In this document: in pieces, positions 33,958-48,269 of the stretch | Position numbering within the stretch: position 1 is the first letter of the stretch | Layout of the letters: each line of letters opens with the position of its first letter | From: Clostridiales bacterium | GTDB taxonomy: Bacteria; Bacillota; Clostridia; Saccharofermentanales; Saccharofermentanaceae | DNA length: 64,000 nt | Direction of reading: 5' to 3' | Assembly (NCBI GenBank): GCA_017940895.1 | Contig: JAGAXM010000020.1 | Span: 788-64,787 of the forward strand | Notes under the pieces: generated by a model | Databases searched by the model: none | Told to the model about the DNA's origin: nothing | The model's input: the letters and a program-made list of their open reading frames with translations, nothing else | Translations under genes and position numbers: made by a program

Positions 33958-33980
33958 ATTTGTCAATTGAATAATTTGTA

Positions 33981-34034
33981 AGCAATGGCGCTTATTGATA
34001 CGAAGACCTCGTATCGGTAAGCGCCTTTTGTTTT
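33981..34034 (+). promoter_or_regulatory. ANTAR-type attenuator in the gltB leader
   Basis: Hairpin AGC-AATGGC-GCT overlaps the 5' arm of terminator GGCGCTTATTGATACGA/TCGTATCGGTAAGCGCC + TTTTGTTTT. Confidence 0.8.
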
Positions 34035-34057
34035 ACGAAGAAACAGGGGTAAACAGT

Positions 34058-37000
34058 ATGGAAGAGTTGAGAATTGACAACTACAGAGTTCAGGATGCCT
34101 TCTCCAAGAACGGACTGTATGATCCTTCCGAGGAGCACGAGAACTGCGGTATCGGTGCTGTTATCAAGATCGACGGCAAAGCTTCTTCTAAAGTTGTAGA
34201 TGATGCGCTTACAATTGTTGAGCAGCTCGAGCACAGAGCGGGTAAGGATGCTGAAGGTAAGACCGGTGACGGTGTTGGTTTCCTGGTTCAGATCTCACAT
34301 GATTTCTTCAGCAAGGCACTCGAATCCGACGGCATCAAGGTCGGTGGCAGAAGATCCTACGGTATCGGAATGTTCTTCATGCCGCAGACCGCCGAGAAGG
34401 CTGAGGCTGCCAAAAAAGTATTCGAAGAGTCATGTGCTAAAGAAGGACTTAAGTTCTTAGGCTGGCGTAAGGTTCCCGTTAACGAGGAAGTACTCGGTTC
34501 ACGTGCAAAAGAGAGTATGCCTACGATCCTGCAGGGTATCGTAGAGCGCCCCGCTGATGCTAAAGAAGATATTGATTTCGAGAGGAAGCTGTACTTTGCA
34601 AGAAAGCTTTTCGAGAAGGAAAACAACGACACTTATGTGTGCTCATGCTCATGCAGAACGATCGTATACAAGGGTATGTTCCTTGTAGGTCAGTTGAGAA
34701 CTTTCTATAAGGACCTCGCGGACGGCGCATACACATCCGCATTCGGTATCGTTCACTCAAGATTCTCCACGAACACTAACCCTACATGGCAGCGTTCACA
34801 TCCTTACCGTATGCTCGTTCATAATGGTGAGATCAACACGATCACGGGTAACATGAACAAGATGCTGTCCCGTGAGAATATCTTCAAGAGCGAGTATTTC
34901 GAGGGACGTTACGAGGATATCTACCCGATGCTCGACGTAACGGGTTCCGACTCCGCAAGACTTGATAATACGATCGAGTTCATGATGATGGCAGGTGTCC
35001 CGCTGCCGCTCGCGATCATGGTTACTATCCCTGAGCCCTGGCAGCACATGGATACGATGGACAGGGAGAAGAAGGCTTTCTATCAGTACTACGCTACTAT
35101 GATGGAGCCTTGGGACGGACCTGCTTCCATCATCTTCACAGACGGTGACAAGGTCGGTGCAGTGCTCGACAGAAACGGCCTTCGTCCCTCGAGGTATTAT
35201 GTAACTTCCGACGGATATCTTATCCTGTCTTCCGAGGTAGGAGTGATCGATGACCTTGATGAGAGCACGATCGTTAAGAAGGACCGTCTGCGCCCGGGCA
35301 AGATGCTCCTCGTAGATACAGTCGAGGGTGCGCTTATAGATGATGAGCACCTTAAGAATGAGTATGTCAGAAGGCAGCCTTATGGTGAGTGGTTAGATCA
35401 CATGCTCGTGGAGCTTCACGATCTCAAGATAGAGAATAAGAGGCCTGTCAGCCACCGAGACGAAGAACTCTACAGGCTTCAGCGTGCTTTCGGATATTCC
35501 TACGGAAATCTTAATAATGAGCTTATTCCTATGTGCCTTAACGGCAATGAGCCGACAGCAGCGATGGGTGTTGATGTGCCGGTACCTCCTTTGTCACAGC
35601 AGCAGCCCCCGCTGTTCGACTACTTTAAGCAGAAGTTCGCGCAGGTAACGAACCCGCCTCTGGACTGTATCCGCGAGGCTATTATCACTGATACGACAGT
35701 CTATCTTGGCGTTACAGGCAACATCCTCGAGGACCACGAAGAGAACTGCCGCGTGCTGAAAGTGCATAATCCTATACTTACTAATCTTGATCTCATGAAG
35801 ATCCGCGACAGCAGACTTGAGGGGCTGAAGACAGCTGATATCTCTATGCTCTATACGAAGGAGCAGGGGCTTGAGGATGCGCTTACATCTTTGTGCCGTC
35901 AGGCTGATGAGGCGCACAATAATGGTGCGACGATACTTATCCTTACTGACCGCGGAGTTGATGAAGAGCATATGGCGATCCCGTCGCTTCTTGCTGTAGC
36001 AGCGCTTGAGACATATCTTGTGCGCACACGTATGAATACGGCGGCATCGATAATCGTCGAGACGGGTGAGCCGATCGAGATTCATCATTTTGCTACATTG
36101 CTTGGCTTCGGTGCGAGTGCGGTTAATCCCTATCTTGCATTCGATACTATCCTTGATCTTATCCACCGCGGCGTGATCGATAAGGAGTTCACACAGGCTG
36201 CCGGCGCTTACATCAGCGCCATCGTAAGCGGAATCGTAAAGATCGCAGCGAAAATGGGTATCTCCACGATCCAATCTTACCAGGGCGCTAAGATCTTCGA
36301 GGCTTTGGGTATCGGTAAGGATCTCATGGATAAGTATTTCCCTGACACGGTAAGCCGCGTCGGCGGTATCACACTCGAGGATATCGCTAAGAGAACAGAG
36401 GCTCTGCACGATCATGCTTTCGATGTATACGGCAGAGGTTCTGCTGACGGTCTCGCAGTAAAGGGCTGGCACAAGTCCAGATCCGGCAAGGAAAAGCACC
36501 TCTACGATCCCGAGACGATCCACATGCTTCAGCTCGCTACAAGAAACGGCGACTACGCTACATTTAAGAAGTTTACTTCGCTTATCAATTCAGACGATCG
36601 CCACGTAACTTTGAGAAGTATGCTCGACTTCAATTACGATCTTTCTAAGGAGATCCCTCTCGAGGAAGTAGAGAGCGCAGAGTCGATCATGCACAGATTC
36701 AAGACAGGTGCTATGTCTTACGGTTCCATCTCACAGGAAGCACATGAATGCATGGCTATCGCGATGAACCGCATCGGCGGTAAGTCCAACTCCGGTGAGG
36801 GCGGTGAAGACTTGGAGAGAATCCGGACTGCGGGTTCCGAAGAGGACCGCTGCTCTGCGATCAAGCAGGTTGCATCGGGAAGATTCGGTGTTACTTCAAA
36901 GTACCTGATCTCTGCGAAGGAAATTCAGATCAAGATGGCTCAGGGCGCTAAGCCGGGTGAGGGAGGACATTTGCCCGCAGGTAAGGTTTATCCCTGGATC

Positions 37001-38635
37001 GCTAAGACAAGACACTCCACTCCGGGTGTTGCACTGATCTCACCTCCGCCGCACCATGATATCTATTCGATCGAGGATCTGGCGCAGCTGATCTATGACC
37101 TTCAGAATGCCAACTCCGATGCACGTATCTCCGTTAAGCTCGTATCCGAATCGGGCGTAGGAACTATCGCAGCAGGTGTTGCAAAGGCTGGTGCCAAGGT
37201 AATCCTCATCTCAGGTTATGACGGCGGTACGGGTGCTGCTCCGGCATCATCCATCCACCACGCAGGTCTGCCTTGGGAGATCGGTCTTGCAGAGACACAT
37301 CGTACATTGATCCGGAATAATCTGCGTTCACACGTACGTCTCGAGACTGACGGTAAGTTGCTCACAGGTAAGGACGTAGTAATCGCTGCTATGCTCGGTG
37401 CTGAGGAGTTCGGTTTTGCTACTGCACCGCTCGTAACCATGGGCTGCGTAATGATGAGAGTATGTAACCTCGATACATGTCCTGTAGGTGTCGCAACTCA
37501 GAACCCTGAGTTAAGAAAGAGATTCACGGGTAAGCCCGAGTACGTAATCAACTTCATGACATTCATCGCGAACGAGATGCGTGAGTATATGGCTAAGCTC
37601 GGTATCCGCACGGTTGATGAGCTCGTAGGCCGCGCAGACTTGCTCAAGGAAGCTGACTGCTCGCTCAAAGGTTCTGTTGATCTTTCAGAGATCATCCACG
37701 ATCCCGAGCTCGCACATCCTTCCGTCAAGAGACACTACGATGAGGCTGATGCTTACGACTTCAAGCTCGATGAGACTATCGACCGCCGTGAGATCATTCC
37801 CCAGATGGCAGATGCTCTTGAGAGCGGCTCTCACAAGGAGATCGAGATCAAGGTAAAGAACCTCGACCGTGCACTCGGTACGATCTTCGGTTCCGAGATA
37901 ACAAAGAGATACTACAACACACTTGAGGACGACACTTATGTAGTCAACGCGAAGGGTGCAGGCGGACAGAGCTTCGGTGCATTCATTCCTAAGGGCCTTA
38001 CGATCAACCTCGAGGGTGATACGAACGACTATTTCGGTAAGGGTCTGTCGGGCGGCGTGCTCACTGTATTCCCTTCCAAGAAGTGTGAGATCAAGCCTGA
38101 AGAGAACATCGTTGCGGGTAACGTAGCGCTTTTCGGTGCGACTTCCGGTAAGGCTTTCATAAACGGTCTTGCAGGCGAGAGATTCTGTGTAAGAAACTCC
38201 GGTGCCAAGGTCGTAGTCGAGGGCTTGGGAGATCACGGCTGTGAGTACATGACGGGCGGTGTCGCAGTAGTACTCGGTCCCGTAGGCAAGAACTTCGCAG
38301 CAGGTATGAGCGGCGGTGTCGCATATGTACTTGATGAGAAGAACAGCCTGTACACGAAGCTCAACAAGTCTCTCGTAGGTTTCGAGCATGTTGTGGACGA
38401 AGAAGACAGGAAGCAGCTTACAGACCTCATCGAAGAGCATGTAAGAAGAACAGGTTCGCCGTTAGGACAGAAGATCCTTAATTCCATTGACGAATATATC
38501 CCCCGCTTCAAGAAGGTCATCCCGCATGACTATAAGCGCATGATGAATTCCATCGCGACGCATATGGCTGCAGGCATGAGCGAAGATGAAGCAAAGATCG
38601 AAGCGTTCCACGAGAACACTTCAGCTAAGGCGTGA
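34058..38635 (+). CDS. gltB: Glutamate synthase large subunit
   Basis: ENCGIG N-terminal Cys, HNGEINT, MSYGSIS, KMAQGAKPGEGG, CNLDTCPVGVATQ; ATG at 34058. Confidence 0.97.
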   Translation: MEELRIDNYRVQDAFSKNGLYDPSEEHENCGIGAVIKIDGKASSKVVDDALTIVEQLEHRAGKDAEGKTGDGVGFLVQISHDFFSKALESDGIKVGGRRSYGIGMFFMPQTAEKAEAAKKVFEESCAKEGLKFLGWRKVPVNEEVLGSRAKESMPTILQGIVERPADAKEDIDFERKLYFARKLFEKENNDTYVCSCSCRTIVYKGMFLVGQLRTFYKDLADGAYTSAFGIVHSRFSTNTNPTWQRSHPYRMLVHNGEINTITGNMNKMLSRENIFKSEYFEGRYEDIYPMLDVTGSDSARLDNTIEFMMMAGVPLPLAIMVTIPEPWQHMDTMDREKKAFYQYYATMMEPWDGPASIIFTDGDKVGAVLDRNGLRPSRYYVTSDGYLILSSEVGVIDDLDESTIVKKDRLRPGKMLLVDTVEGALIDDEHLKNEYVRRQPYGEWLDHMLVELHDLKIENKRPVSHRDEELYRLQRAFGYSYGNLNNELIPMCLNGNEPTAAMGVDVPVPPLSQQQPPLFDYFKQKFAQVTNPPLDCIREAIITDTTVYLGVTGNILEDHEENCRVLKVHNPILTNLDLMKIRDSRLEGLKTADISMLYTKEQGLEDALTSLCRQADEAHNNGATILILTDRGVDEEHMAIPSLLAVAALETYLVRTRMNTAASIIVETGEPIEIHHFATLLGFGASAVNPYLAFDTILDLIHRGVIDKEFTQAAGAYISAIVSGIVKIAAKMGISTIQSYQGAKIFEALGIGKDLMDKYFPDTVSRVGGITLEDIAKRTEALHDHAFDVYGRGSADGLAVKGWHKSRSGKEKHLYDPETIHMLQLATRNGDYATFKKFTSLINSDDRHVTLRSMLDFNYDLSKEIPLEEVESAESIMHRFKTGAMSYGSISQEAHECMAIAMNRIGGKSNSGEGGEDLERIRTAGSEEDRCSAIKQVASGRFGVTSKYLISAKEIQIKMAQGAKPGEGGHLPAGKVYPWIAKTRHSTPGVALISPPPHHDIYSIEDLAQLIYDLQNANSDARISVKLVSESGVGTIAAGVAKAGAKVILISGYDGGTGAAPASSIHHAGLPWEIGLAETHRTLIRNNLRSHVRLETDGKLLTGKDVVIAAMLGAEEFGFATAPLVTMGCVMMRVCNLDTCPVGVATQNPELRKRFTGKPEYVINFMTFIANEMREYMAKLGIRTVDELVGRADLLKEADCSLKGSVDLSEIIHDPELAHPSVKRHYDEADAYDFKLDETIDRREIIPQMADALESGSHKEIEIKVKNLDRALGTIFGSEITKRYYNTLEDDTYVVNAKGAGGQSFGAFIPKGLTINLEGDTNDYFGKGLSGGVLTVFPSKKCEIKPEENIVAGNVALFGATSGKAFINGLAGERFCVRNSGAKVVVEGLGDHGCEYMTGGVAVVLGPVGKNFAAGMSGGVAYVLDEKNSLYTKLNKSLVGFEHVVDEEDRKQLTDLIEEHVRRTGSPLGQKILNSIDEYIPRFKKVIPHDYKRMMNSIATHMAAGMSEDEAKIEAFHENTSAKA

Positions 38636-38649
38636 GAGGAGATAAGACA

Positions 38650-40119
38650 ATGGGAAAATCAACAGGATTCATGGAATATCAAAGAGTAAATAACCCCGGG
38701 CTTGAGCCTCTCGAGAGGATCAAGAACTATCGTGAGTTCCATTCACCTTTGGATGAAGCGCGAAGGCGCGAGCAGGGTGCGCGCTGCATGAACTGCGGTG
38801 TGCCTTTCTGCCAGTACGGTAAGCCCATCTGCGGCATGGTCGCGGGCTGCCCCTTAAACAACCTCTGTCCCGACTGGAACGACCTCGTATACAAGGGCTT
38901 CTGGGACGAAGCACTTGAACGCCTTATGCTCACGAATGCGTTCCCGGAGTTCACGTCCCGCGTATGTCCCGCCCTGTGCGAAAAGGCATGCGTCTGCGGT
39001 CTTAATGACGAGCCGGTAACAACGAAAGAGAATGAGTATTCGATCATCGAGCACGGATATGAGTCCGGCACTATGAAGGCTCATGTACCTGCGAACCGTA
39101 CAGGTAAGAAGGTAGCGGTAATCGGATCCGGTCCTTCCGGTCTGTCGACTGCATACTGGCTTAATATGAGAGGCCACGAAGTAACTGTATATGAGAAGTC
39201 TGACCGTCCGGGAGGATTGCTGATGTACGGTATCCCGAACATGAAGCTCGAGAAGTCGGTTATCCTTCGCAGAGTTAAGATCCTCGAGGAAGAGGGAATC
39301 ACATTCAAGTGTTCGGTCAACGTTGGTGTCGATATCACATATGAGGAACTCAAGTCTTCATATGATGCGGTTGTTCTTTGCTGCGGTGCGGGTAACCCCA
39401 GAGATATCAAGGCTGAGGGTCGCGATGCGAAGGGCATCTACTTCGCAGTGGATTTCCTCCGTGCTACGACTCAGTCACTGCTTGCATCGAACATGGCTGA
39501 TACGAAGTATATCAGCGCTAAGTATAAGGACGTTATCATCATCGGCGGTGGTGACACGGGTAACGACTGTGTAGGTACATGTATGCGTCACGGATGTAAG
39601 TCCGTAACACAGCTTGAGATGATGCCTGCACCTCCTGTAGAGCGTGCTGCAAATAACCCTTGGCCTGAGTGGCCGAAGATCCTCAAGACCGATTACGGTC
39701 AAGAGGAAGCTGCTGCAGTATTCGGTCATGATCCCCGTGTTTACTGCACGACGGTTAAGAAGTTTATCAAGGATGAGAACGGTAAGTTGTCCGCTGTTGA
39801 GACAGTTGAACTTAAGAGCGTTAGGGATGAGACGACAGGCCGCTTCAATATGGTTCCCGTAGAAGGAACAGAGAAGACACTGCCCTGTCAGCTGGTTCTC
39901 ATTGCTGCAGGATTCTTAGGACCCCAGTCTTATGTGGTCGATGCATTCGGAGTTGATACCAATGCAAGATCCAACATCGAGACAGGTTCAGGTCATGCCA
40001 CATCGGTTCCCGGCGTATTCGCCGCTGGTGACTGCAAGAGAGGTCAGTCGCTGGTCGTATGGGGACTTCGTGAGGGAAGAGATGCGGCAGCAGAAGTTGA
40101 TCAGTATCTGATGAAATAA
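38650..40119 (+). CDS. gltD: Glutamate synthase small subunit
   Basis: ARCMNCGVPFC, GCP, RVCPALCE, GSGPSG, GGGDTGNDC, AGD. Confidence 0.97.
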   Translation: MGKSTGFMEYQRVNNPGLEPLERIKNYREFHSPLDEARRREQGARCMNCGVPFCQYGKPICGMVAGCPLNNLCPDWNDLVYKGFWDEALERLMLTNAFPEFTSRVCPALCEKACVCGLNDEPVTTKENEYSIIEHGYESGTMKAHVPANRTGKKVAVIGSGPSGLSTAYWLNMRGHEVTVYEKSDRPGGLLMYGIPNMKLEKSVILRRVKILEEEGITFKCSVNVGVDITYEELKSSYDAVVLCCGAGNPRDIKAEGRDAKGIYFAVDFLRATTQSLLASNMADTKYISAKYKDVIIIGGGDTGNDCVGTCMRHGCKSVTQLEMMPAPPVERAANNPWPEWPKILKTDYGQEEAAAVFGHDPRVYCTTVKKFIKDENGKLSAVETVELKSVRDETTGRFNMVPVEGTEKTLPCQLVLIAAGFLGPQSYVVDAFGVDTNARSNIETGSGHATSVPGVFAAGDCKRGQSLVVWGLREGRDAAAEVDQYLMK

Positions 40120-40618: not shown

Positions 40619-42385
40619 TTATCCGTGATCCTGTAATGCTGCGAAGCCTGTCTCTCCGGTTCTGATACGTACGACGTTCTCAACGTTGTAGACGAAGATC
40701 TTACCGTCGCCGATGTGACCTGTGTACAGAACTTTCTTAGCTGTGTCGATAACAGTGTCTACAGGTACCTTGGATACGATGATATCCACTTTGATCTTAG
40801 GCAGCAGTGATGCCTCTACAGGTACACCTCTGTAGTACTCCTGACGACCCTTCTGTGCGCCGCAACCGAGTACGTGTGAAACTGTCATACCGGTTACGCC
40901 GACGCCCATGAGGGCTTTCTTGAGGGAGTCGAGCTTACTCTCTTTGCAGATGATCTCGACCTTTGTATACTTCTTGCCGTCTGCTGTAGGAGGTACGATA
41001 GTGGTAACGTTCGTAACTTCGACTGCGGACTCGACGGGAACCTCACCGACAACTGCGGGAGCCTCTACGTCAGCCATCTCAACGATAGCCTGAGGTCTCA
41101 TAGAGAAGCCGGCGTATGCTGCAGGGAGACCGTGCTCTGTAGGATCGAGACCTTCGATCTCTTCTTCACGTGATACACGGAGACCGTGAACCTTCTTGAT
41201 AACTGCGAATGTGATCGTCATAAGAACTGCTGTCCATGCAACGATAGATGTGATACCGAGGCACTGTACACCGAATACCTTAAGACCTGCGTTGAAATCT
41301 GATCCGTGGATCAAAGCGTAGATAGGACCGTCCACTCCGTAGGAGGATGTGCTTGTAGCGAAAAGACCGGCGCAGAGAGTACCTACGATACCGTTAGCGA
41401 GGTGAACGCCGCAGGCACCGACAGGGTCGTCGATGTGAAGCTTGAGGTCGAGCCACTCAACTACGAGAACTACCAGGATACCGGAGATAAGACCTTCAGC
41501 GAAAGCACCTGCTGCATCGATACAGTGGCAGCCGGCTGTTACGTTTACGAGACCTGCGAGGGAAGCGTTGATGCACATGGATACATCAGGCTTACCGTTC
41601 TTGAGCCAAGTGAAGATCATACATGTAACTGTAGCAACTGCAGGAGCGATTGTTGTTGTAAGGAAGATAGCAGCGAGCTGTGAACCGGAAGTTGCAGCCG
41701 CACCGTTGAATCCGTACCAGCCGAACCAGAGGATGAAGCATCCTAATGCTCCGATCGGGATGTTGTGACCCTGAATAGCGTTAACCTTGATGACCTTACC
41801 GGAATCGTCTCTTATATACTTACCGATACGGGGACCGACCATGATCGCACCGATGAGAGCGGCAACACCGCCGACTGTATGGATACAAGCAGAACCTGCG
41901 AAATCGATGAAGCCTAAGTTAGCAAGCCATCCTGCGGGGTTCCATGTCCAGCCTGCCTCGATAGGATATACGATGAGGGAGAGGACTGCGGAATAGATGC
42001 AGTAAGAGCTGAACTTTGTTCTCTCTGCCATAGCACCTGAAACGATAGTGGCTGCCGTGGCACAGAATACGAGGTTGAATACGAAGCTTGAAGCGTTGTT
42101 CTCCATAAAGCCCGTAAAGTCTGTGAAGATAGAGAGGTTCGGGATTCCGATGAATCCTGCGATCATATCTTCACCCATCATGAGACCGAAGCCCAAGAAG
42201 ATAAAACATACTGTTCCAATACAGAAGTCCATGAGGTTCTTCATGAGGATGTTACCTGCGTTCTTGGCGCGGCAGAAACCAGCTTCGAGCATTGCGAATC
42301 CGGCCTGCATGAAGAATACCAGCGCAGCTCCGATAAGGAACCAGATTCCGAAGACCTCCTGTGTGATTAATTCGGTGACATTCAT
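40619..42385 (-). CDS. amt: Ammonium transporter fused to a C-terminal P-II domain
   Basis: FMQAGFAMLEAG, DFAGS..IH, HIDDPV..VHL. P-II part: LGCGAQKG..YYRG, KIKVDI, TGHIGDGKIFV..RIRTGE. RBS AGGAGG before ATG 42385. Confidence 0.95.
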   Translation of the reverse strand: MNVTELITQEVFGIWFLIGAALVFFMQAGFAMLEAGFCRAKNAGNILMKNLMDFCIGTVCFIFLGFGLMMGEDMIAGFIGIPNLSIFTDFTGFMENNASSFVFNLVFCATAATIVSGAMAERTKFSSYCIYSAVLSLIVYPIEAGWTWNPAGWLANLGFIDFAGSACIHTVGGVAALIGAIMVGPRIGKYIRDDSGKVIKVNAIQGHNIPIGALGCFILWFGWYGFNGAAATSGSQLAAIFLTTTIAPAVATVTCMIFTWLKNGKPDVSMCINASLAGLVNVTAGCHCIDAAGAFAEGLISGILVVLVVEWLDLKLHIDDPVGACGVHLANGIVGTLCAGLFATSTSSYGVDGPIYALIHGSDFNAGLKVFGVQCLGITSIVAWTAVLMTITFAVIKKVHGLRVSREEEIEGLDPTEHGLPAAYAGFSMRPQAIVEMADVEAPAVVGEVPVESAVEVTNVTTIVPPTADGKKYTKVEIICKESKLDSLKKALMGVGVTGMTVSHVLGCGAQKGRQEYYRGVPVEASLLPKIKVDIIVSKVPVDTVIDTAKKVLYTGHIGDGKIFVYNVENVVRIRTGETGFAALQDHG

Positions 42386-42419
42386 AATGTGCACCCTCCT
42401 TCTCGAAAAATTTTTGTAG

Positions 42420-42464
42420 AAAAACAGCCCGTCCTCTTATCAAGGGAACGGGCTGCCATAGACC
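42420..42464 (-). terminator. Terminator/attenuator between glnN and amt
   Basis: CAGCCCGTTCCCTT-GATA-AGAGGACGGGCTG followed by TTTTT (minus strand), preceded by GGTC-TATGGC-AGCC. Confidence 0.8.
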
Positions 42465-42482
42465 GTGAATTGTATGTGCGGT

Positions 42483-44614: not shown

Positions 44615-44709
44615 AAAAGAAAAGGCACCGAGGGTGTAAACCTTCGGCGCCTTTGCCTGTATCAATCATTTTCGACTGTGATGATAACCCTCTGCTAACC
44701 GCTTGTCAA
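44615..44709 (-). promoter_or_regulatory. glnN promoter plus ANTAR-type attenuator
   Basis: TTGACA(44709-44704)-17 bp-TATCAT. Hairpin GGC-AAAGGC-GCC (44657-44646) overlaps terminator AAAGGCGCCGAAGG/CCCTCGGTGCCTTTT. Confidence 0.85.
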
Positions 44710-44733: not shown

Positions 44734-44830
44734 TTGACAATTCATAATCCGGAATGTTATCTTTTTTAAGAACAAAGGCGTTCATTCGGGTAAAAACCAA
44801 TCTGCCCGAATGGGCGCGTTTACTTTTTTG
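44734..44830 (+). promoter_or_regulatory. Promoter plus ANTAR-type attenuator of the glnA-like/ANTAR/pyrG operon
   Basis: TTGACA-18 bp-(TGn)TATCTT. Hairpin GAAC-AAAGGC-GTTC (44770-44783) overlaps stem GCGTTCATTCGGGTA/TGCCCGAATGGGCGC with a downstream T-run. Confidence 0.75.
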
Positions 44831-44862: not shown

Positions 44863-46071
44863 ATGAATTGTTCTATTGATGAGTTCATGCAGTATATCGA
44901 AGAGGAGGACATCAAGTTCATAAGACTTCTGTTCTGTGATGTCTTCGGTAACCCCAAGAACATCTCCGCGATGCCGTCATATATCGAGAGAGCGTTTAAT
45001 GAAGGCGTCGGTATCAACCCCATGGGTATCGACGGATTCAAGGAAGAATCCAGATCGGAAGTCTTCCTTCATCCGGAGCCTGATACGGCGGCGCTCCTTC
45101 CTTGGAGACCTGATTCGGGAAGAGTCGTAAGACTGTTCTGTGATCTTAAATATCAGGACGGAACTCCTTTCGCAGCGGATACGAGAAATATCTTGAGAAA
45201 TGCAGTAAAGAAGGCTGCGCAAGAAGGAATTAAATTCACGATCGGCACTCGTATAGAGTTCTATCTTTTCAAGACGGACGAAGACGGCGAGCCTACGAAG
45301 GTTCCTTTCGACAAGGCGGGATATATGGATATCGCTCCTCTTGATAAGGGCGCGAACGTAAGAAGAGAGATCTGCCTTACGCTCGAACGCATGGGCATCC
45401 AGCCTTTCAATTCTCATCACGAAGCAGGTCCCGGACAGAACGAGATCGACTTCGTGTCGGCTGACCCCGTTAAGGCTGCCGACGATGTTGTTACTTATAT
45501 CTCTGTTGTTAAGACCATCGCTGCGCGTAACGGTCTTTATGCAGATTTCTCACCCAAGCCCCTGTCGGGACTTCCGGGTAACGGATTCCATGTAAATATC
45601 AGTGCGAGCCGCGACGGCGATACATCGGTTATGCCTTCCGTTATCGAGGGCATTATGCAGAAGATCTACGACATGACGATCTTCCTTAACCGCTGCGAAG
45701 ACTCGTATCAGAGAATCGGGAAGGGCGATGCGCCCAGATTTATATCGTGGTCCGGCGGCAACTTCGGACAGCTTGTCCGCGTACCCCAAAGCTCCGGTCA
45801 CCACTATGCTCAACTGCGTTCCCCTGACGCGTTCAGCAATCCGTATCTGACGTTCGCCCTTCTCATTTATGCAGGTCTGTACGGTATTAAGAATAACCTC
45901 GAGCTGCGTGCTCCGGTTGATCAGGATCTTACTTACATACCGTCGAATGTGGGAGACTTCAAGATGCTCCCGAGAACGATAGACGAGGCGAAAGAAGCGG
46001 CTAAGAGCAGCGACTTCCTTAAGGAGTATCTGCCCGAGTCAATCATAGAGGCGTACTGTGCGCAGGGATAA
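44863..46071 (+). CDS. Glutamine synthetase type I homologue, probably catalytically degenerate
   Basis: GS-I fold motifs (IRLLFCDVFG, HHEAGPGQNEIDF, PKP, NPYL) but GTRIEF, NFGQLVR and YAQLRS replace GPEPEF, NRSPLIR and RVEVRS; C-terminus is short. Confidence 0.85.
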   Translation: MNCSIDEFMQYIEEEDIKFIRLLFCDVFGNPKNISAMPSYIERAFNEGVGINPMGIDGFKEESRSEVFLHPEPDTAALLPWRPDSGRVVRLFCDLKYQDGTPFAADTRNILRNAVKKAAQEGIKFTIGTRIEFYLFKTDEDGEPTKVPFDKAGYMDIAPLDKGANVRREICLTLERMGIQPFNSHHEAGPGQNEIDFVSADPVKAADDVVTYISVVKTIAARNGLYADFSPKPLSGLPGNGFHVNISASRDGDTSVMPSVIEGIMQKIYDMTIFLNRCEDSYQRIGKGDAPRFISWSGGNFGQLVRVPQSSGHHYAQLRSPDAFSNPYLTFALLIYAGLYGIKNNLELRAPVDQDLTYIPSNVGDFKMLPRTIDEAKEAAKSSDFLKEYLPESIIEAYCAQG

Positions 46072-46645
46072 TGCATATTCTGTATTATTAGTATCGAGCA
46101 ATGAGAAGATGACCTCTTCTTTATCGGTATTTCTGTCCCGCGAAGACTACGGTCCCGTGGTTACTTCTGAGTCTGTCTCTGCGGCCAGAAGACTCGTGTC
46201 CCAGCGCGACTTCGATATCGTCATAATCAACACACCTTTGAAGGATGAGATCGGTATTAATTTCGCGATAGAGATCGCGGATTCATCGTCAAGTTCGGTC
46301 ATGCTTCTTGTTAAGGCCGATATGTTCGACGAGGTCTCGTATAAGATGCAGGACTGCGGAGTGTTCACGCTCGCGAAGCCTGTCAATTCCACTGTGCTCG
46401 GCTACTCGATGAAGATGATGTGCTCTACTCGTGAGAGGCTTCTTCGCATGGAGCAGAAGCAGAAGACATTCGAGGAGAAACTCGAGGAGATCAAGATCGT
46501 TAACCGCGCTAAGATCATACTCGTGGAGAACCTGTCGATGTCTGAAGAAGAGGCACATAAGTTTATAGAGAAGAACGCGATGAACGAGCGCAAGAGCAAG
46601 GTGTTCATCGCGAAGAAGATAATAAGCGAATATAAAAAACCATAA
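46058..46645 (+). CDS. Pseudo-receiver + ANTAR antitermination regulator (NitR/NasT/AmiR-like)
   Basis: C-terminal IVNRAKIILVENLSMSEEEAHKFIEKNAMNERK is ANTAR. The receiver has LLVSS and IIN in place of DD and the phospho-Asp. GTG start overlaps the upstream gene. Confidence 0.9.
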   Translation: MRRDNAYSVLLVSSNEKMTSSLSVFLSREDYGPVVTSESVSAARRLVSQRDFDIVIINTPLKDEIGINFAIEIADSSSSSVMLLVKADMFDEVSYKMQDCGVFTLAKPVNSTVLGYSMKMMCSTRERLLRMEQKQKTFEEKLEEIKIVNRAKIILVENLSMSEEEAHKFIEKNAMNERKSKVFIAKKIISEYKKP

Positions 46646-46670: not shown

Positions 46671-48269
46671 ATGACCAAATACATTTTCGTTACGGGAGGA
46701 GTCGTGTCGGGTCTCGGTAAAGGGATAACCGCCGCTTCTCTCGGAAGACTTCTTAAGATGCGCGGATTCAAGGTCGCGGCGCAGAAGCTCGACCCGTATA
46801 TCAACGTGGATCCCGGTACGATGAGCCCTTATCAGCACGGCGAGGTTTACGTTACCGAGGACGGCTGCGAGACTGACCTGGATCTCGGTCACTACGAGAG
46901 ATTCATCGATGAGGACTTAAACCGCTTCTCGAACATCACCACGGGTAAGGTGTACTCGAATGTCATCTCCAAGGAGCGAAAAGGTGAGTACCTGGGTAAG
47001 ACGGTTCAGATCATTCCTCATATTACTGATGAGATTAAACAGTTCATTTATAACGTAGGTAAGACTTCCGATGCGGATATCGTAATTACCGAGGTCGGAG
47101 GCACGATCGGTGATATCGAGTCCCAGCCTTTCATCGAGGCGATCCGTCAGGTCGGTAATGAGGTGGGTCCGCATGATTCTTTGTATGTGCATGTTACTTT
47201 ATTGCCTTACCTCAAGGCTTCGGGCGAGCACAAGTCCAAGCCTACACAGCACTCCGTTAAGGAACTGCAGGGAATGGGAATATCGCCTGATATTATTGTG
47301 CTTCGTACCGACGAGCCGATCGAGGATAAGTCGATCATCAGTAAGATCGCTAACTTCTGTAATGTTAAGGAAGACTGCGTCATCGAGAACCAGACTCTGC
47401 CGATTCTTTATGAGGCTCCGCTGATGCTCGAGAAGGCAGGTCTGTCGAATGCGGTTCTTCGTAAGCTCGGCATCTTCTGCGGTCATCCGGATCTGGGCGA
47501 GTGGAAGAAGGTTATCGAGAATATCCGTAACCGTGAAGGCCATGTGAAGATCGGTCTGATCGGTAAGTATACACAGCTTCATGACGCATATCTGTCAGTT
47601 GCCGAGGCGCTCCGTCACGCAGGTTATGAGGAGCGTGTTTATGTTGATATCGACTGGATCGATTCCGAGACTATAACTGCTGATAATGTTGCTTCTATAC
47701 TCGGTAAGCTCGACGGAGTCATCGTGCCCGGCGGATTCGGTAACCGCGGTATCGAGGGTATGGTACAGACTGCCAAGTACTGTAGAGAGAATAATGTTCC
47801 TTATCTCGGTATCTGTCTCGGTATGCAGATCACGGTTATCGAGGCTGCACGTTCGTTGCTTGGGTTAACTGATGCGAATTCCGGTGAGTTCGATGCGAAG
47901 TGCGCACATAAGGTCATCGACTTCATGCCCGGCCAGAATGATGAGATCGAGAAGGGCGGTACACTCCGTCTCGGAAGTTACCCTTGTTCAGTAGTTGCAG
48001 GTACTAAGCTTGAAGAGCTCTACGGCGAGTCCGAGATCCGTGAGAGACACAGACACCGCTATGAGTACAACAACGACTACCGTGAGGACCTCGAGAAGGC
48101 AGGTCTTAAGATCTCCGGTCTGTCACCTGACGGAAGACTTGTCGAGACAGTCGAGTTCGAGAAGAATGACTTCTATGTAGGTGTTCAGTTCCACCCCGAG
48201 TTCAAGAGCCGTCCGAACAAGCCTCATCCTTTATTCCTGGGGCTTATCAGGGCTTCAATGAAGAAATGA
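46671..48269 (+). CDS. pyrG: CTP synthase
   Basis: [54 protein letters not shown]. Confidence 0.98.

Follow-up and report, generated by a model that had tools for sequence, protein, structure and literature searches.

AmiR of P. aeruginosa and NasT of Paracoccus denitrificans are ANTAR antiterminators with an unphosphorylated pseudo-receiver that act on leader terminators and are controlled, by sequestration and release, by the co-encoded ligand-binding partners AmiC and NasS. In C. saccharobutylicum and C. acetobutylicum, a type I-alpha glutamine synthetase (GS) gene, glnA, is followed by the REC-ANTAR antiterminator gene nitR within a nitrogen-assimilation cluster (Stutz et al. 2007, as summarised in PMC6316151). 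NitR of C. saccharobutylicum is described, in a 2018 review, as an antiterminator that induces the GS and glutamate synthase (GOGAT) genes under nitrogen limitation, and its nitrogen sensing is called 'not fully understood' (PMC6316151). We analysed a similar gene pair in a 64,000-nucleotide stretch of a Clostridiales bacterium (contig JAGAXM010000020.1, positions 788 to 64,787; hereafter, the window). Here, a GS-I-alpha-derived gene of 402 codons (44863-46071, plus strand) is followed by the gene of a 195-amino-acid REC-ANTAR antiterminator with a NitR-type pseudo-receiver (46058-46645, plus strand).

The GS-I-alpha pocket of methanogens binds 2-oxoglutarate, a signal of nitrogen limitation, which drives assembly and a large conformational change. 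The GS-like protein of the window resembles these enzymes, M. mazei GlnA1 (8s59/8tfb) and M. thermolithotrophicus GS (8ooq), in its fold and in the same six 2-oxoglutarate contacts at the intra-ring interface. They are active enzymes in which 2-oxoglutarate turns catalysis on, whereas in the window catalysis appears to be lost, the ring-joining C-terminal helices are gone and the proposed output is an RNA-binding protein. As in B. subtilis, where GS acts as a trigger enzyme on TnrA and GlnR, a Firmicute GS-I-alpha would report nitrogen status by protein-protein contact. The B. subtilis system, however, needs a competent, feedback-inhibited GS (R62 and the E304 flap) and has MerR-type DNA-binding partners, while here both determinants are lost and the predicted partner binds RNA. 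AmiC and NasS differ in another way: they have a periplasmic-binding-protein fold and bind amides or nitrate/nitrite, whereas the partner proposed here would be a GS-fold oligomer that binds a central metabolite. Finally, GlnA of the glnA-nitR pair is treated as an enzyme, whereas the GS partner in the window has lost n2 metal ligands and ATP arginines, together with the inter-ring helices, the flap and Asp50', which would leave sensing as its only role.

We consider it fairly likely, from comparison of sequences, that the window encodes a GS-derived 2-oxoglutarate sensor that controls a NitR-type antiterminator. A literature search of incomplete coverage found no proposal that a GS-like protein acts as the sensor of an ANTAR protein. 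Glutamine synthetase also goes unmentioned in a review of RNA-binding antiterminators from 2025 (PMC12591593).

Catalytic residues of the GS-like protein

Among solved structures, the GS-like protein is closest to the GS-I-alpha enzymes of Paenibacillus, B. subtilis and M. mazei (E about 1e-85). Its GS fold, with a beta-grasp N-domain and a catalytic C-domain, is present according to the Pfam domains Gln-synt_N and Gln-synt_C and to an AlphaFold2 model (predicted local distance difference test, pLDDT, 90.4; predicted template modelling score, pTM, 0.92), which matches M. mazei GS with a template modelling (TM) score of 0.95. Against TIGR00653, the equivalog model of catalytic GlnA (EC 6.3.1.2), the protein scores 265.8 bits, below the cut-off of 429.15.

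Substitutions were read from a phmmer alignment to B. subtilis GS (4lnf, E 7e-86), in native B. subtilis numbering, and further losses were taken from a comparison with 30 canonical clostridial GS-I-alpha sequences. Both acidic ligands of the n2 metal are replaced, E132 by R130 (in GTRIEF) and E333 by Q317 (in YAQLRS). Among the arginines that contact the ATP phosphates, R316 has become F301 (in NFG) and R331 has become Y315, leaving R321 as the only one of the three. D53 (Asp50') is N52, in the motif INPMG, where G54/S55/S56 are replaced by P/M/G (S56 by G55); E304 of the Glu flap is D289 and R62 is E61. The residues E134, E189, E196, H245, R298, R321 and R335 are retained, which leaves the n1 metal site (E134, E189, E196) complete and reduces the n2 site (E132, H245, E333) to H245. 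The protein also stops about 25 residues short of the M. mazei and B. subtilis enzymes, and therefore lacks the C-terminal helices H14/H15, which make the contact between the two hexamer rings. The initial annotation, read by eye, had listed the substitutions at E132, E333, R316, the D53 loop and E304, the loss of the inter-ring tail, and the retention of E134, E189, E196, H245, R298 and R335; all of these were reproduced by the alignment. Comparative evidence supports the view that this GS-I-alpha homologue has lost residues needed for catalysis and is a pseudoenzyme.

The possibility that the gene is simply decaying is excluded by its ratio of nonsynonymous to synonymous substitution rates (dN/dS) of about 0.1 together with coupled substitutions. 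Compared with an 85%-identical orthologue, dN/dS of the GS-like gene was 0.107 (dS 0.83); that of the ANTAR gene was 0.071, and values for GS-III and pyrG, obtained against another relative, were 0.059 and 0.024. Among the 120 best homologue clusters (57-100% identity), R at position 132 always occurs with Q or S at 333, and E132 always with E333. The coupled R132/333 substitutions are conserved in more than 60 homologue clusters. The sub-branch of the window protein (69-100% identity) consistently carries N53, R132, D, E or N at 304, F, Y, H or R at 316, and Q333, and 26-80 alignment columns are invariant in the family. Conservation of the substitutions in homologues beside ANTAR genes had been suggested as a check of the regulatory proposal; the substitutions are conserved, and decay is refuted.

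A separate comparison of the window with one related locus (L173) gave identities of 92-94% for GS-III and pyrG, 82% for the GS-like protein and 68% for the ANTAR protein. The regulatory pair thus evolves much faster than the flanking enzymes at these two loci.

Retention of the 2-oxoglutarate pocket

Cryogenic electron microscopy of M. mazei GlnA1 identified six direct contacts to 2-oxoglutarate, F24, R26, R87, R172', R173' and S189' (PMC11957540), and the 2-oxoglutarate site of M. thermolithotrophicus GS has the same motif (PMC10799026). The pocket was mapped by ungapped alignment to M. mazei GlnA1 (8s59), in which the window residue equals the M. mazei number minus 5. All six contact residues are retained, and their codons span 44917-45414 on the plus strand: F19 (for F24, codon at 44917), R21 (for R26, 44923), R82 (for R87, 45106), R167 (for R172', 45361), R168 (for R173', 45364) and S184 (for S189', 45412). 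F19, R21 and R82 would come from one subunit, and R167, R168 and S184 from the next. In B. subtilis GS, the discriminating positions are occupied by Y20, E36 and T83, which would clash with 2-oxoglutarate (PMC10799026); at the position of E36 the window protein has S35, and no bulky or acidic residue blocks the site.

The initial annotation had proposed glutamine or glutamate as the ligand. Feedback by glutamine in B. subtilis GS rests on R62 and the E304 flap (PMC10799026), and both determinants are altered, to E and D in the window protein and mostly to D/G and K in the family. This part of the proposal is therefore not upheld: the B. subtilis-type determinants of glutamine feedback are gone and the 2-oxoglutarate pocket is kept instead, which makes 2-oxoglutarate the better candidate signal, with or without glutamate or glutamine at the residual n1 site. 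By sequence comparison, the signal read by the GS-like protein is likely 2-oxoglutarate, bound at the inter-subunit pocket.

Pocket residues are invariant or nearly so throughout the family. The strongest test of the pocket came from 61 cluster representatives in which 6-13 of the 13 catalytic residues are missing. These eroded proteins keep, on average, 5.69 of the six pocket residues. When the 371 alignment columns of the same 61 representatives were ranked by conservation, the pocket residues stood at 5, 16, 18, 19, 34 and 73 and the catalytic residues at 91-346. As judged from these alignments, the pocket and the residues around it are maintained by selection even as the active site breaks down.

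We also asked if an Arg at position 83 (B. subtilis numbering), the key arginine for 2-oxoglutarate, marks ANTAR-linked GS specifically. In a first sample it was present in 25/25 linked and 4/16 unlinked genes, and in a second sample of unlinked genes in 14/17. The residue is common in clostridial GS-I-alpha generally, and the idea was dropped in favour of the narrower statement that the pocket outlasts the catalytic site.

The ANTAR partner and its pairing with the GS-like gene

The ANTAR protein encoded 3' of the GS-like gene matches PF03861 with 50.2 bits and PF00072 with 30.1 bits, just below the cut-off of 30.2, and is the only ANTAR match in the genome. In its AlphaFold2 model (pLDDT 92.4), a long helix (residues 111-159) joins a receiver domain to an ANTAR domain of three helices, and the best fold matches are EutV-RNA (TM 0.78), followed by Rv1626 and AmiR. 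Alignments to Rv1626 and to NtrC-type receivers place VLLVSS (S13 S14) where the canonical DD pair would be and IIN at the phospho-Asp (N58, nucleotide 46229), in agreement with the pseudo-receiver first read from the sequence. Such receivers are the rule among the partner ANTAR proteins (n=79): 76 carry S in place of the first acidic residue, and at the phospho-site 70 carry N and one carries D. The DD pair is also missing from ANTAR proteins encoded behind canonical glnA genes, most of which have lost the Asp as well. EutV-type ANTAR proteins of the same class, used as a control, retain both the DD pair and the phospho-Asp. The neighbours of the ANTAR gene are the GS-like gene and pyrG, and no histidine kinase gene lies beside it. 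Lacking a phospho-acceptor, such a receiver must take its cue from something besides a kinase. It would need a protein partner, as AmiR needs AmiC and NasT needs NasS.

The two genes are tightly joined in the window. The GS-like stop codon (TAA, 46069-46071) overlaps the ANTAR gene, which starts with GTG at 46058, by 14 nucleotides, as had been noticed initially, and AGAGG lies 6 nucleotides 5' of this start codon. We sampled 80 species-representative loci whose GS-like proteins are 51-74% identical to that of the window. In 77 of them (77/78 informative loci), the next gene downstream, on the same strand, is an ANTAR gene; of the other three, two were cut by a contig end and one carries a further GS-like copy, which has the ANTAR gene. 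Gaps between the two genes range from -14 to about 70 nucleotides, and the order is kept across taxonomic orders. Among five heavily eroded representatives, four have an ANTAR gene immediately 3', including one without any metal ligand. Furthermore, of 300 Clostridia genomes, 143 carry the two genes together and 128 lack both; 13 have just the ANTAR gene and 16 just GS-I-alpha. Within the genus of the window, both genes are present in three genomes (the window's included) and absent from five. Comparative evidence thus supports the GS/ANTAR pair put forward initially, with a non-catalytic and conserved GS-like protein, a kinase-independent receiver and a near-obligate pairing (77/78), apart from glutamine or glutamate as its ligand.

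A different type of ANTAR gene lies between a prmC/hemK-like methyltransferase gene and mazG at loci L125-L131 and L144 (family f37, one of f7). Its receiver has ARS for DDE and retains Asp at the phospho-site.

Origin of the pairing

A search of 1.8 billion cluster representatives yielded 8603 matches. The best 150 of these, which were inspected, are mostly GS-I-alpha-like proteins of 370-440 amino acids, and the catalytic residues that they have lost differ by lineage. The commonest state in the 80 species-representative loci (51-74% identity), found in 72/81, keeps all metal ligands and arginines and combines E304K, R62 changed to D/G and a truncated C-terminus; by sequence, the R/Q state of the window protein is a derived minority. 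In a maximum-likelihood tree, the short family was monophyletic (Shimodaira-Hasegawa-like approximate likelihood ratio test, SH-aLRT, 100) and was placed inside a clade (SH-aLRT 96). At the base of this clade are full-length GS that look catalytic, each with an ANTAR gene behind it. The R/Q state arose in a single clade (SH-aLRT 95). Pseudo-receiver ANTAR genes also stand behind glnA genes that look catalytic, so the GS/ANTAR partnership is probably older than the loss of catalysis. By this phylogeny, the family, which is very large, arose from catalytic GS linked to ANTAR genes, and the window protein is one of its derived members.

One further locus, L124 (G178:C1:2277300-2281400), carries in tandem a canonical glnA, a GS-I-alpha paralogue (R62N, with flap E304 and a full C-terminus) and a pseudo-receiver ANTAR gene. 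From its sequence, this tandem looks like an intermediate between a trigger enzyme and a dedicated sensor.

Leader switches at nitrogen genes

A genome-wide search for AA(N)GGC hexaloop hairpins with a T-run behind them found four leaders: those of gltB, of glnN (GS-III), of the operon of the GS-like gene and one on another contig (C32). Each lies just after a promoter-like site, and in each the 3' arm of the hairpin contributes to a terminator's 5' arm. The switch of the GS-like/ANTAR operon (44770-44829, plus strand) begins with the hairpin GAAC-AAAGGC-GTTC (44770-44783), the 3' arm of which lies within the terminator 5' arm (GCGTTCATTCGGG ... CCCGAATGGGCGC, then a T-run). A consensus scan places the putative promoter of this operon at 44734-44763 (plus strand), with a sigma-70-like TTGACA, an 18-nucleotide spacer and a TG-extended TATCTT. 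On the minus strand, the glnN leader (44622-44657) has the hairpin GGC-AAAGGC-GCC overlapping the terminator GGCGCCGAAGG-TTTACA-CCCTCGGTGCC-TTTTCTTTT, after a putative promoter, TTGACA/TATCAT, found in the same way at 44709-44681. The gltBD leader (33978-34035, plus strand) has the hairpin GTAAGC-AATGGC-GCTTAT overlapping a 17-bp terminator. Outside the window, the fourth switch (contig C32:81101-81160) consists of ATGAAC-AACGGC-GTTCAT and a terminator after a promoter-like TTGACA, and lies upstream of a 412-amino-acid LL-diaminopimelate-aminotransferase-like gene.

ANTAR target loops carry A1 and G4, and ANTAR regulons on nitrogen genes have been predicted in Firmicutes (PMC3369931). The loops found here likewise carry A1 and G4, with one hairpin evident per leader where the canonical target is a pair. 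At gathering thresholds, Rfam models matched only a tRNA in the window and no ANTAR-target family. In about 16/81 related loci, from different families, an atgaRc-AAnGGC-gttcat hairpin lies directly 5' of the GS-like gene. Half of the loci have this gene behind gltB-type genes in a longer operon, and the absence of a hairpin directly 5' of it there therefore says little. Switch leaders at gltB, glnN, the GS-like operon and the C32 gene give comparative support to an antitermination regulon that covers nitrogen-assimilation genes, in line with the link between antitermination and nitrogen status drawn in the initial annotation.

A further terminator-like hairpin (CAGCCCGT...ACGGGCTG, then a T-run) lies on the minus strand at 42395-42482, between the GS-III stop and the start of the amt-PII gene. 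It is preceded by a TATGGC loop, which resembles AA(N)GGC without matching it. By its sequence, this hairpin may be a second attenuator within the glnN-amt transcript.

Proposed mechanism and alternatives

From sequence, structure prediction and comparative genomics we infer a mechanism that includes binding of 2-oxoglutarate, a physical complex with the ANTAR protein and a direction of control. A former GS-I-alpha enzyme would now be the metabolite-sensing partner of the ANTAR antiterminator encoded 3', having retained the GS fold and the intra-ring subunit interface with its 2-oxoglutarate pocket. When 2-oxoglutarate is low and nitrogen is plentiful, the GS-like protein would hold the ANTAR protein inactive, and transcription would stop at the leader terminators of gltBD, glnN-amt, the diaminopimelate-aminotransferase-like gene and its own operon. 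A rise in 2-oxoglutarate would change the oligomeric state or conformation of the sensor and free the ANTAR protein. The free protein would bind the AA(A/U)GGC hexaloop hairpin, which competes with the terminator stem, and allow read-through.

Several observations weigh against this reading. The fifth heavily eroded GS-like gene is followed by pyrG and has no ANTAR gene. Conversely, three NitR-type pseudo-receiver ANTAR genes (L137-L139) occur in genomes without any GS-I-alpha gene, where they sit in nitrogen clusters (beside GS-III/amt, the GOGAT GXGXG subunit or guaA). The pairing is thus not absolute, and the odds ratio of 88 for co-occurrence across the 300 genomes is uncorrected for phylogeny. 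R83 is also found in 18/33 unlinked, catalytic-looking clostridial GS-I-alpha genes, and three of the six pocket residues (R169, R170 and S186) are common to all GS. A phylogenetically independent-pairs test, underpowered because it offered too few contrasts, gave p of at least 0.125. Since the pocket is ancestral and present in unlinked clostridial GS-I-alpha, its retention could be partly structural. Most family members retain all metal ligands and the ATP arginines, and some of their catalytic turnover may persist.

The literature on C. thermocellum, an organism of industrial interest, speaks for the reading. Its single type I-alpha glnA (Clo1313_2031) has a REC-ANTAR gene (Clo1313_2030) on one side and the GOGAT cluster on the other (PMC4676874, PMC9888227). 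The likeness of Clo1313_2031/2030 to the window is one of gene type and gene order; the order matches half of our loci. Deletion of the equivalent gene in C. thermocellum reportedly alters nitrogen regulation and ethanol yield. By its title as given in citing papers, a 2017 study by Rydzak is said to have found that glnA deletion 'deregulates nitrogen metabolism'; its abstract reportedly described nitrogen-assimilation genes as induced despite high glutamine, which would fit a negative regulator.

A rather unlikely alternative is that the GS-like protein is regulatory and acts on a target other than the ANTAR protein (GS-III, GS-I-beta or another), with the ANTAR protein taking its input from the Amt-PII fusion, from a metabolite bound to the pseudo-receiver or from its own autoregulated abundance. 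The three NitR-type ANTAR genes without a GS-I partner fit this alternative, as does the leader switch of the operon itself, through which ANTAR abundance would be autoregulated, and GS-I-alpha proteins in the list of structures from the Protein Data Bank (PDB) bind small regulators, including GlnK1 and GlnR/TnrA peptides. The order of GS-like and ANTAR genes and their short gaps, however, survive extreme divergence of the GS-like protein, and the two genes are gained and lost together. A scan of the genome for PII domains found none besides the Amt fusion; the only PII domain is tethered to a transporter, which leaves no free PII as the usual soluble 2-oxoglutarate sensor. Moreover, the catalytic GS of this genome are of beta type and type III, and mixed assemblies of these with an alpha-type protein are unlikely.

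It is also unlikely that the GS-like protein is still an enzyme with altered chemistry, either a gamma-glutamyl ligase for another amine or a one-metal enzyme in which R130 replaces the n2 metal, and that the ANTAR gene is its neighbour through a shared operon only, as is assumed for glnA-nitR. GS paralogues with other substrates are known (PDB matches include glutamate-methylamine ligase and gamma-glutamylputrescine synthetase-like models), and this alternative accommodates the retained n1 ligands, H245, R298, R321 and R335, the majority of the family, in which metal ligands and ATP arginines are complete and E304K is the change, and the canonical, catalytic-looking glnA genes that precede ANTAR genes. 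However, the clade of the window lacks the n2 site and two ATP-phosphate arginines, and related lineages have lost different catalytic residues, up to all metal ligands, while keeping the ANTAR neighbour, a pattern that does not fit a conserved reaction. Continued catalysis would also leave the control of a receiver without phospho-acceptor unexplained. A functionless glnA relic, made dispensable by GS-III and GS-I-beta, would account for the lost catalytic residues beside other GS genes, yet is highly improbable given the intact open frame, dN/dS of about 0.1, the coupled substitutions across more than 60 clusters, the 26-80 invariant columns and a confident AlphaFold2 model.

If the GS-derived sensor is real, the module would stand in for GlnR/TnrA, NtrBC and free PII in linking gene expression to carbon/nitrogen status, and the sensing step of clostridial NitR, long unexplained, would be accounted for. 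For NitR, the comparative data give a testable answer, in which the sensor is the neighbouring GS-like protein and the signal is 2-oxoglutarate, and they name the residues to mutate. The family has thousands of members in Clostridia of the gut and rumen, with Anaerotignum lactatifermentans and [Eubacterium] hominis among the cultured carriers. In the databases searched, the few named members are labelled 'glutamine synthetase', as a result of which metabolic reconstructions may over-count GS enzymes. It would be a clear case of an enzyme turned into a pseudoenzyme receptor, with intermediates still present. More tentatively, it is possible that a large share of gut and rumen Clostridia, and some metagenome-assembled genomes labelled Erysipelotrichia or Treponema, have as their master nitrogen switch a 2-oxoglutarate-receptor GS with a kinase-independent ANTAR protein, in which GS became a receptor stepwise and 2-oxoglutarate-driven assembly releases or captures the antiterminator.

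Neighbouring genes

The segment of the window from gltB through the REC-ANTAR gene and pyrG is a nitrogen-assimilation cluster. gltB (about 34058-38635) and gltD (38632-40119) lie on the plus strand. They are followed, on the minus strand, by a gene for a fusion of an ammonium transporter with the genome's only PII domain (amt-PII, 40619-42394) and by GS-III (glnN, 42483 to about 44549; Pfam GSIII_N, Gln-synt_C and Gln-synt_C-ter), the intact GS gene that had been reported next to the pair from the outset. The genome also has an intact GS-I-beta with all catalytic residues (contig C19) and a further GS-domain gene (contig C3). GS-III is a catalytic GS and a probable target of the leader switch.

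On the other side of the pair, pyrG (CTP synthase, a glutamine amidotransferase; 46671-48269, plus strand) starts 25 nucleotides past the ANTAR stop, and the gap contains no terminator. pyrG probably shares an operon with the GS-like and ANTAR genes, and the order of the three is repeated in L005, L006, L173 and other loci. A glutamine amidotransferase gene recurs 3' of the ANTAR gene: pyrG in the window, L173 and L170, carA/carB in L165 and L171, and a guaA-like gene in L137. Glutamine-consuming biosynthetic genes may therefore share the operon, and hence the switch.

GS-like stretches also occur in two giant predicted proteins, which may be fusions, repeats or artefacts of assembly or gene calling: P0121 (4424 amino acids) and P0136 (2757 amino acids), which contain 12 and 6 of them, respectively.

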